Source: Candidatus Babeliales bacterium
Lineage (GTDB): Bacteria; Babelota; Babeliae; Babelales; Vermiphilaceae
Assembly: GCA_963743635.1 (NCBI GenBank)
Contig: CAVUQO010000002.1
Location: 320,001-384,000, forward strand
DNA length: 64,000 bases
Reading direction: 5' to 3'
Shown here: positions 61,289-63,227 of the stretch, piece after piece
Layout of the letters: each line of letters begins with the position of its first letter
Position numbering within the stretch: position 1 is the stretch's first letter
Notes under the pieces: model-generated
What the model was told of the DNA's origin: nothing
Databases searched by the model: none
The model's input: the letters and a program-made list of their open reading frames with translations, nothing else
Position numbers and translations under genes: made by a program

Positions 61289-61324
61289 CGGGCTCCTCAA
61301 TAAAAAGAGGGGCCCGAATCTTTT
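61289..61324. terminator. Hairpin/terminator; a second, interrupted copy lies at 63249-63497
   Basis: cgggctcctc-aataaaaa-gaggggcccg-aatctttt. Confidence 0.7.
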
Positions 61325-61418
61325 ATAAACGATTGTGTTCTACGGATGTTTTTTGCCATCATAGGGTAAAGTAAGGTATGAACATAGGGTTCATATCAAT
61401 TATTAAAAAGGAGAGATA

Positions 61419-63227
61419 ATGGATAGAAATAAAATCATAGCGGGTGCAGTGCTCGCGATTGGCGTTATAGTATGGCGCGTGGGGGCGATGCAGCAGGGCA
61501 ACAATCAAATCGAGATAGAGCCCAATGATGGACCTGTAATACGCATGAACATCGATAGAGCATGCTTATCTGGCACGATTAAGAATCTCTATGATACTCT
61601 ACAAAATGAAGCTGGGGAGTTCAACGAGCCAATGCCAGTGTCGGTTTCAACTGCTGATCTGAATGCCGTATTTATCACCGAAGAACCGCAGATTTTGGCA
61701 GCACATGCGGCTTTTAATGATCGCACTCTCGCTGCGATCAGCGCATTGCCAGAAGAAGTGCGGAAAGAAAGAGCGAGGCGCGCTGCGAGTCTCATGGCTC
61801 AGACGCCGTACAATGCAGAGTTATTAAACCGCACTATGAAACGCTTTCAGGTTGCAGTCTATTTAGATATTCCGGAATTGTATGAGCGTGATGCGAAAAT
61901 AATTGCGGATATGTTGATCTCTGATGTGGGTCTTGCGGCATTGAGCGGTAATGCCGCGATTTTAAATGAATTTACGGTGGCATTAGAGACGGCAGTTGCC
62001 AACTATATTCCGGAACTCTGGCTCGAGGCGTGCACGTTAAGAGGGCATACTAATTGGGTTATATCAGCAGCATTTTCACCCGATGGCACTCTGGTGGTGA
62101 CGGTATCTATGGATAACACTGCAAAGATATGGAATGCTGCAACTGGTGCAATGGTCAGAGATCTTGATACTGGTGAGGTTAATTCAGCTCTTAAATCAGC
62201 AGCATTTTCACCCGATGGCACTCTGGTGGTGACGTTATCTGGTGATAACACTGCAAAGATATGGAATGCTGCAACTGGTGCAATGGTCAGAAATCTTGTG
62301 GGGCATACTGGGCTGGTTAATTCAGCAGTGTTTTCACCCGATGGCACTCTGGTGGTGACGGCATCTTGGGATCGCACTGCAAAGATATGGAATGCTGCAA
62401 CTGGTGCAATGGTCAGAGATCTTGTGGGGCATACTAATTGGGTTATATCAGCAGCATTTTCACCCGATGGCACACGGGTGGTGACGGCATCTGATGATAA
62501 CACTGCAAAGATATGGAATGCTGCAACTGGTGCAATGGTCAGAGATCTTGTGGGGCATACTGCTTATGTTCAGTCAGCAAAATTTTCACCCGATGGCACT
62601 AAGGTGGTTACGGCATCTGTTGATCGCACTGCAAAGATATGGAATGCGGCAACTGGTGCAATGGTCAGAGATCTTGTGGGGCATACTGAAGTGGTTTCTT
62701 CAGCAGTATTTTCACCCGATGGCACTCAGGTGGTGACGGCATCTTATGATAAGACTGCAAAGATATGGAATGCAGCAACTGGCGCAATGGTCAGAAATCT
62801 TGTGGGGCATACTGATGTGGTTTGTTCAGCAGTATTTTCACCCGATGGCAGACGGGTGGTGACGGCGTCTGCTGATAACACTGCAAAGATATGGAATGCG
62901 GCGACTGGTGCATTGGTATGGAATCTTGTGGGGCATACTGGAGCGGTTTTTTCAGCAGTATTTTCACCCGATGGCACTCAGGTGGTGACGGCATCTTATG
63001 ATAAGACTGCGAAGATATGGCAATTATTGCCAAGCTCGTTGCCCGGCGTGAATGATTTTGATGCGACCTTATTCGCTCATTTACTATTCTGGGCGCAAAA
63101 AAATAAACAAAAAATAACCGATACTTCGTGGGCGCCGAAAGTTGTGCATGCCATTAAATGGCATATGATGAGGCCTGCCGATAAGCAGTTGCTGCAAGGA
63201 TGGATTCGGGAAGCTATGCAGCACTAA
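61419..63227 (+). CDS. Secreted Skp1/BTB-like + 8x WD40 repeat protein
   Basis: Signal RVGA|MQ; SGTIKNL, EPMPV and AVYLDIPEL..AKIIADML resemble Skp1; GH...FSPDG..VVTAS.D.TAKIW repeats. Confidence 0.88.
   Translation: MDRNKIIAGAVLAIGVIVWRVGAMQQGNNQIEIEPNDGPVIRMNIDRACLSGTIKNLYDTLQNEAGEFNEPMPVSVSTADLNAVFITEEPQILAAHAAFNDRTLAAISALPEEVRKERARRAASLMAQTPYNAELLNRTMKRFQVAVYLDIPELYERDAKIIADMLISDVGLAALSGNAAILNEFTVALETAVANYIPELWLEACTLRGHTNWVISAAFSPDGTLVVTVSMDNTAKIWNAATGAMVRDLDTGEVNSALKSAAFSPDGTLVVTLSGDNTAKIWNAATGAMVRNLVGHTGLVNSAVFSPDGTLVVTASWDRTAKIWNAATGAMVRDLVGHTNWVISAAFSPDGTRVVTASDDNTAKIWNAATGAMVRDLVGHTAYVQSAKFSPDGTKVVTASVDRTAKIWNAATGAMVRDLVGHTEVVSSAVFSPDGTQVVTASYDKTAKIWNAATGAMVRNLVGHTDVVCSAVFSPDGRRVVTASADNTAKIWNAATGALVWNLVGHTGAVFSAVFSPDGTQVVTASYDKTAKIWQLLPSSLPGVNDFDATLFAHLLFWAQKNKQKITDTSWAPKVVHAIKWHMMRPADKQLLQGWIREAMQH
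62043..63020 (+). repeat. Eight tandem ~126-bp near-identical WD40-coding repeats
   Basis: gggcatact starts at 62043, 62301, 62427, 62553, 62679, 62805, 62931; unit 2 carries an indel. Confidence 0.95.

Follow-up and report, generated by a model that had tools for sequence, protein, structure and literature searches.

Gene and protein layout

We analysed a window of 64,000 nucleotides from Candidatus Babeliales bacterium (GenBank assembly GCA_963743635.1, contig CAVUQO010000002.1, positions 320,001 to 384,000 of the forward strand). Coordinates refer to this window unless another contig is named. The subject of this study is a gene close to the end of the window, which an original prediction made from the sequence alone had read as a Skp1-like domain fused directly to a WD40 propeller, behind a signal peptide. 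The gene it described is real: we found one long open reading frame (ORF) at 61419-63227 on the plus strand, encoding 602 amino acids (aa). A Shine-Dalgarno-like GGAGAG (61410-61415, plus strand), read directly from the sequence, lies 3 nt ahead of the ATG, and the paralogues of the gene show the same in-frame K-G-G translation upstream of the start. Further upstream a terminator-like hairpin is found at 61289-61316 (plus strand; consensus match only), with a 10-pair stem that contains 8 G-C pairs and with a T-rich tail. As this hairpin closes the upstream unit, the 602-aa gene looks like its own transcription unit. Its GC content is 47% compared to 42% for the genome.

Five segments can be distinguished in the protein, all of them encoded on the plus strand. 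The leader (aa 1-23; 61419-61487) has a basic N-terminal end, a hydrophobic core, small residues and a terminal Ala. It is followed by a Skp1-type POZ domain (aa 28-166; 61500-61916), which corresponds to Skp1 residues ~3-130 according to the sequence profile, the structural comparisons and the models, and which contains a helical insertion in place of Skp1's long acidic loop. At the position of Skp1's F-box-binding helices we observed a lineage-specific helical extension (aa 167-200; 61917-62018). An eight-bladed WD40 propeller (aa 201-536; 62019-63026) was delimited by Pfam, the model and the repeat structure. The last segment (63027-63227) comprises a C-terminal three-helix tail (aa 537-602), recognised by its conservation in the family and in the model, and the stop codon.

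The N-terminal domain

When only the query sequence was used, the likeness of the N-terminal domain (N-domain) to Skp1 was not significant. Pfam gave no match to Skp1_POZ (PF03931) or BTB on aa 1-207 even at E<=10, and a phmmer search of the Protein Data Bank (PDB) with the query returned Skp1 chains at E-values of 0.27-1.7 only. The register of these matches, query 30-81 against Skp1 ~4-55, agrees with the alignment put forward in the original prediction. For a family profile we aligned the N-domains of 20 paralogues from the same 1.45-Mb assembly (alignment A1), which were found by a six-frame search and are 19-30% identical to the query. The A1 profile matched Skp1 from animals, plants, yeast and Dictyostelium in the PDB with a best E-value of 1.4e-8, profile positions 10-135 being aligned with Skp1 3-127. 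The Skp1-like domain that had been claimed for aa ~28-166 is therefore real at the level of the family, and the two best-matched stretches of the profile are exactly the two motifs that had been singled out. Elongin C came next (E 0.017-0.07) and there was no BTB protein among the matches listed.

Pfam gave a graded picture across the family. At a lenient threshold (E<=10) Skp1_POZ matched 9/20 members, with a best E-value of 8.6e-7, and BTB (PF00651) matched 3/20, with a best E-value of 0.0016; the query was included in neither group. In a genome-wide scan with Skp1_POZ one paralogue scored above the curated Pfam cut-off of 21.9 bits (31.1 bits) and one below it. At least two of eight proteins of the same design from related genomes also exceeded this cut-off (55.0 and 30.8 bits), as did the N-terminal parts of five of seven further relatives (30.0, 51.6, 23.8, 37.1 and 42.7 bits). 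The language-model neighbours of the N-domain were Skp1 and Elongin C clusters (0.87-0.89), which we treat at lead level only.

We then compared predicted structures. The AlphaFold model of the query N-domain, computed with A1 as the alignment, had a predicted local distance difference test score (pLDDT) of 70 and a predicted template modelling score (pTM) of 0.59. A Foldseek comparison of this kind had been named as a check of the prediction, and it placed Skp1 chains on top: only Skp1 chains were found among the matches listed to rank 49, all of them scoring weakly (E 2e-3 to 3e-2, TM 0.40-0.57). A second structural aligner superimposed model residues 6-160 on Skp1 2-141 with Z-scores of 6.2-8.1, covering 92-132 residues at a root-mean-square deviation of 2.9-4.6. 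The AnkB-Skp1 structure 5k35 was among the structural matches of the N-domain. In the model of the full-length protein, which reached a pLDDT of 90.6 and a pTM of 0.83, the POZ region shows pLDDT values of 87-96.

Taking the profile, Pfam, structural and language-model evidence together, the N-domain is a Skp1-type POZ domain, homologous to the POZ half of the eukaryotic protein. The match begins at Skp1 residue 2-3 right after the leader, without an N-terminal extension, and for this reason we assign the domain to the Skp1 type and not to the dimeric BTB type. Within this Skp1-like family the sequence of the query is a divergent one.

The WD40 propeller

The second domain of the original prediction, the WD40 propeller, is certain. 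PF00400 matched eight stretches with an E-value of 5e-82 and the model contains 32 strands, which we counted as eight blades. The best structural matches of the propeller are 8-bladed propellers (TMt 0.95-0.96), and Skp1-Fbw7 entries appear among its matches at ranks 26-42. On the DNA level the propeller is a 126-bp repeat with 7.7 copies and 85% matches. When the eight 42-residue units were aligned most positions were near constant. The most variable positions were 16, 17, 19 and 35, which we take to be the top-face contact positions of WD40 repeats.

WD40 proteins from a wide range of free-living bacteria have similar blades: we kept 78 loci from many phyla with a best-segment identity of 35-60%. 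The N-domain was carried by 0/78 of these loci, in a scan that is dominated by WD40 and says nothing on the range of the handle, as we call the N-domain in what follows. With blades of bacterial type and the N-domain on none of the 78 loci, the gene appears to be a chimera, in which a handle of eukaryotic origin is combined with a propeller of bacterial type.

The fusion of a Skp1-type domain to a WD40 propeller in one chain is thus borne out, and the design matches that of an adaptor and a receptor joined in a single protein. That the protein is exported via Sec and imitates, in a single chain, a substrate receptor of cullin-RING ligases of the Skp1-cullin-F-box (SCF) type we consider about an even call; docking on a cullin, entry into the host and ubiquitination are all putative.

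Family and distribution

The N-domain was detected on 23 ORFs of the genome (domain E<1e-5), which together account for 2.7% of the assembly (39.4 kb); the original prediction had noted neither these paralogues nor the recurrence of the family in the phylum. Over their first ~1.95 kb, which lie inside a family gene, contigs C2 (2-1954) and C3 (3-1954) are 99.5% identical in reverse complement. Because of these overlapping ends one copy was counted twice, which leaves ~20 full N-domain genes and two partial ones. The two contigs probably join or break at these repeated genes, and one version of the gene at their ends is split by a frameshift. Tandem arrays of family genes are located at C2:109-115 kb, C3:1-8 kb, C3:664-670 kb and C3:795-803 kb. 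The query gene stands alone, and its POZ part is 16-31% identical to those of the other family members; its metagenome counterpart is P0002, with 51-82% identity.

At least two family genes are split into two adjacent ORFs each (C3:751807-753656 and C3:779252-780774) and are probably pseudogenes or the result of sequencing frameshifts. We also noted a 1102-aa ORF at C3:504788-508096 (plus strand), in which a long unrelated N-terminal part precedes the second half of the N-domain only (aa 677-792), followed by WD40-like repeats.

To survey the family more widely we compared aa 28-205 with 1.84 billion representative proteins using HMMER and obtained 17 proteins at E<=1e-3. These comprise the query, one spurious match and 15 proteins with the leader-handle-WD40-tail design or fragments thereof. 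The spurious match, P0010, is a repeat protein of 1105 aa with 12 matched stretches, and it has neither the leader nor WD40 repeats. The metagenome homologues P0007, P0008 and P0013 end in Ser runs followed by Asn runs, a kind of tail that is absent from the query protein.

Among 260 other sampled genomes of the phylum, 18 contained a handle match at E<=1e-4, distributed over 7 of 21 families, and several of these genomes carry arrays (11, 7, 6 and 4 matches). Among closer relatives a match at E<=1e-3 was found in 5 of 40. Of the eight proteins of relatives that we examined, six combine the handle with WD40 and one with leucine-rich repeats (LRR); one more appears LRR-like by eye. Within the databases and genomes searched we found the handle only in this host-dependent phylum. 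In the relative G039 four tandem genes (C1:973-982 kb; L107, L113, L116) encode two or three consecutive Skp1-like domains ahead of the propeller, and one Skp1-like domain of this genome reaches 55 bits on Skp1_POZ.

The assembly of 1.45 Mb is 85% complete and encodes four TLC nucleotide transporters. All 261 sampled genomes of the phylum belong to one order, and the ~60 with listed sizes mostly measure 0.8-1.9 Mb, with one of 2.4 Mb. These genome features probably fit the Dependentiae (TM6). According to PMC4776705, members of that phylum parasitise protists, have small genomes and encode ATP/ADP translocases along with WD40, F-box, LRR and ankyrin proteins. Chlamydiae and Rickettsiales were set aside as source lineages only tentatively, because FHIPEP and VirB4 had no match in a genome that is 85% complete. 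For a cultured member PMC6561590 reports signal peptides on 44% of all genes and on 78% of the ankyrin-repeat genes, which are read as secreted effectors. According to the two sources, it is normal for members of the phylum to secrete eukaryote-like repeat proteins (PMC6561590, PMC4776705). A Skp1-like or BTB domain is described neither in PMC4776705, in which BTB and ubiquitin have 0 occurrences, nor in PMC6561590; in the latter, where Skp1 and BTB were not among the terms searched for, F-box and ubiquitin occur once each, in the reference list, and WD40 does not occur.

The helical extension and the C-terminal tail

In eukaryotic Skp1 the POZ half is followed by the helices that hold the F-box. 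This C-terminal domain (PF01466) was found neither in the genome (E<=0.1) nor in any of the 20 family members, and the sequence alignment to Skp1 stops near Skp1 residue 127-138. With the C-terminal half of Skp1 undetected, the protein represents an incomplete Skp1, and any geometry on a cullin would be putative. The full-length model shows family-specific extension helices at 169-177, 180-184 and 187-194, and the helices of the tail at 546-561, 571-578 and 586-599 with pLDDT ~90. The tail is conserved in the family and contains one invariant L and two invariant W.

We folded the N-domain and the tail as two separate chains and obtained a score of 0.83 (0.83, 0.84 and 0.83 in the individual runs) compared to 0.05 for the best control. 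As a benchmark, 0.83 was attained by 116 of 157 solved complexes and by 2 of 215 mismatched pairs. The contacts agreed between runs to at least 98% and the partner pLDDT was at least 88. They connect N-domain residues 143-177 (protein residues 166-200) with protein residues 536-574. The fold was computed with our own alignments and both chains are parts of one polypeptide, so the result speaks for intramolecular packing and is not a measured interaction. According to these models the chain is predicted to run from the POZ domain through the helices and the eight blades into a tail that returns to clamp the helices, at the position that an F-box would occupy on Skp1. Handle and propeller are predicted to form one rigid unit.

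The possibility that the tail is an F-box itself was examined and rejected, as aa 538-602 gave no Pfam F-box match at E<=10 and a comparison of the tail profile with the PDB returned no F-box protein. The best PDB match of this profile was 9hnh_A (E 0.0015), with no stretch passing by itself. In the model the tail would thus be a positional analogue of an F-box only. Furthermore the 85%-complete genome yielded no F-box-like gene in a search with PF12937 (no match at E<=0.01), PF00646 not being run. The undetected F-box-binding half of Skp1, the lack of an F-box-like gene in this search and the protein's own tail packed in that place together favour an 'F-box-less' design.

A cullin or SCF decoy would have the same homology and the same architecture as a working receptor mimic. 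Its handle would bind a host cullin or another Skp1 partner unproductively, and the protein would titrate SCF ligases or shield bound host proteins. The missing C-terminal half of Skp1 and the uncertain geometry leave room for such a non-productive complex. We nevertheless regard a decoy as quite unlikely: ~20 paralogues with variation on the blade surface and an exchange of WD40 for LRR fit many targets better than one titration job, and a rigid handle-propeller unit, as predicted by the model, is what productive receptors have.

Leader and export

The n-, h- and c-regions of the signal peptide in the original prediction can be read in the leader; its cleavage is putative. The hydrophobic core comprises 14 residues, with a Kyte-Doolittle mean of 2.7 for aa 6-19, and aa 1-27 have a pLDDT <50 in the full-length model. 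From these features the leader is probably a Sec signal peptide. The predicted A|MQ junction was found to be conserved, A23 and M24 each being at least 90% conserved in 24 aligned family members. The presumed cleavage site Ala23-Met24-Gln25 is located at 61485-61493, and Glu or Gln usually follows the Met in the family. It is uncommon for a mature protein to begin with a conserved Met; this residue may have a bearing on stability once in the host cytosol, or else translation may start internally at this point. Met-Glu or Met-Gln would, after removal of the leader, give an ordinary, stable eukaryote-like N-terminus in the host cytosol.

The leader motif W-[RHK]-x-G-[AV]-M is present on 16 ORFs of the genome. 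Two leader-bearing ORFs have other bodies, one of 219 aa (C2:115078-115737, plus strand) and one WD40-only of 201 aa (C3:33232-33837, minus strand). With the same leader on proteins with other bodies, the leader behaves as a portable export tag. The genome also encodes two secretins and signal peptidase I genes.

Proposed function

As a mimic of a substrate receptor the protein might act as follows. The leader would take it through Sec and signal peptidase I would cut after Ala23. The protein would then leave the cell, which encodes two secretins, and reach the host cytosol by some further step. There its Skp1-like face would dock, without an F-box protein, on the N-terminal domain of a cullin of the host, most likely of the Cul1 type. 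A host protein would be recruited by the propeller through its variable top face and ubiquitinated by the host Rbx1/E2, and different paralogues may aim at different host proteins. Besides the Skp1 homology and the predicted rigid build, two sets of observations argue for this course. The ~20 paralogues, the tandem arrays, the blade variation and the WD40/LRR exchange form the pattern of a receptor library, and the small genome, the TLC transporters, the secretins and signal peptidase I point to a host-dependent lifestyle with an export route. Some 20 exported Skp1-propeller proteins would probably let the bacterium plug into the protein-destruction machinery of its host.

Besides the undetected Skp1 half and the uncertain geometry, several points weigh against such a function. 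The query is the weakest Skp1 match of its family and has no Pfam match, and the residue aligned with the Skp1 Asn in the 'AANYL' stretch varies across the family. In the structural comparison the BTB domains of KEAP1 and SPOP and Elongin C follow close behind Skp1 (Z 6.2-6.4), and the range of Z 6-8 may reflect a common arrangement, the model of the N-domain by itself being of middling confidence (pLDDT 70). The remaining points concern delivery. The leader could be an uncleaved membrane anchor instead. A Sec leader delivers to the periplasm or the cell exterior, and we know of no route over the host vacuole membrane for this lineage. FHIPEP (type III secretion) and VirB4 (type IV secretion) had no match in the 85%-complete genome.

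The Sec-type leader and the lack of a match for these secretion markers would also suit a protein that is not delivered to the host cytosol. Remaining in the periplasm, on the surface or in the lumen of the vacuole, it could be a scaffold for binding or adhesion, and its POZ domain would have no more than a structural or oligomerising role. Free-living bacteria commonly have such WD40 blades (78 loci, 35-60%), and none of these loci carried the N-domain. We think a scaffold unlikely, as the handle is specifically Skp1-like and thus resembles a cytosolic eukaryotic adaptor, and as it was found only in a host-dependent phylum among the data searched (17 matches in 1.84 billion, one of them spurious). 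Secreted eukaryote-like repeat proteins are moreover normal in the phylum, as stated in PMC6561590 and PMC4776705.

In its fullest form the receptor mimicry that we favour would amount to a natural 'F-box-less SCF receptor'. A phylum without injection machines would have taken the POZ half of Skp1, replaced the F-box-binding helices by a tail-closed clamp and wired this handle to interchangeable WD40 or LRR modules. The outcome would be ~20 exported degraders docking on host Cul1, each marking a different host protein. We put this version forward tentatively and lean somewhat against it as a whole.

Skp1 has duties outside SCF ligases and is also part of the yeast RAVE complex, which assembles V-ATPase. 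Handle and propeller might mimic such a job and interfere with a complex of this kind, e.g. with vacuole acidification. The Skp1 homology would fit, as would a bacterium that is probably vacuole-dwelling, judging by PMC6561590. Nothing specific supports this explanation, and a modular handle with WD40 or LRR is typical of ligase receptors; we consider it very improbable.

Comparison with known systems

Microbes are known to hijack host cullin-RING ligases via F-box, BTB-box and U-box effectors and via viral copies of Skp1. We compared the protein, read as a mimic of a substrate receptor, with four groups of known systems. The complexes of Skp1 with F-box/WD40 receptors (Skp1-Fbw7, Skp1-beta-TrCP, Skp1-Cdc4) share with it a homologous POZ domain and an eight-bladed WD40 propeller held via a helical module. 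In contrast to these complexes the present system is one polypeptide and not two, and it is encoded by a bacterial gene with a leader. The F-box-binding domain of Skp1 was not detected and there is no F-box by sequence. The clamp is instead predicted to be formed by the segment before the propeller and the tail after it. If this is true, the junction between the two proteins Skp1 and F-box can be replaced by an intramolecular clamp, and the family would be a natural counterpart of engineered one-chain degraders.

The second group are the BTB-Kelch and BTB-BACK-Kelch adaptors of Cul3 (KLHL11, KEAP1), which likewise combine a POZ-fold handle, a helical linker and a beta-propeller in one chain. 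Here the handle is of the Skp1 type by sequence, the propeller is WD40 and not Kelch, the N-terminal dimerisation element is lacking and a 3-box was not identified. BTB-Kelch proteins have been called single-chain analogues of Skp1/beta-TrCP1 (PMC3597819). By analogy, the present family would be a literal version of this single-chain idea, on the Skp1 branch of the fold.

Among bacteria the Parachlamydiaceae offer the nearest precedent. Domman et al. (2014) described expanded F-box and BTB-box families with LRR or tetratricopeptide repeats and type III signals, and according to their paper the Chlamydiae were then the sole bacteria known with BTB domains (PMC4209131). Both systems consist of large tandem-duplicated families in obligate intracellular bacteria of protists, combine a ubiquitin-ligase handle with repeats and are read as effectors. 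The differences are the Skp1-type handle, the WD40 repeats (LRR in some relatives), the Sec-type leader and the lack of a type III marker in our search. With bacterial F-box effectors, such as Legionella AnkB and others (PMC4209131), the family would share the aim of redirecting host SCF ligases. AnkB-type effectors bring an F-box and need host Skp1, whereas here the protein brings the Skp1-like part itself.

In a literature search that was carried out largely without subscription journals and without supplements we came across no description of a Skp1-type domain joined to WD40 in a bacterium. A bacterial protein that supplies a Skp1 handle fused to a target binder would, if our reading is true, be a new solution to ligase hijacking. 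It would further provide the first concrete, testable effector mechanism for a widespread and barely studied phylum of protist parasites, which seems to depend on Sec-type export rather than on injection systems. The ~20 paralogues with variable propeller faces would then be ready-made probes for host proteins important in infection.

Antisense reading frames

The WD40 region contains two antisense ORFs on the minus strand, at 62003-62503 (166 aa) and 62744-62977 (77 aa). Most likely both have arisen simply through the repeat, and antisense frames of WD40 genes from other phyla match them as well.

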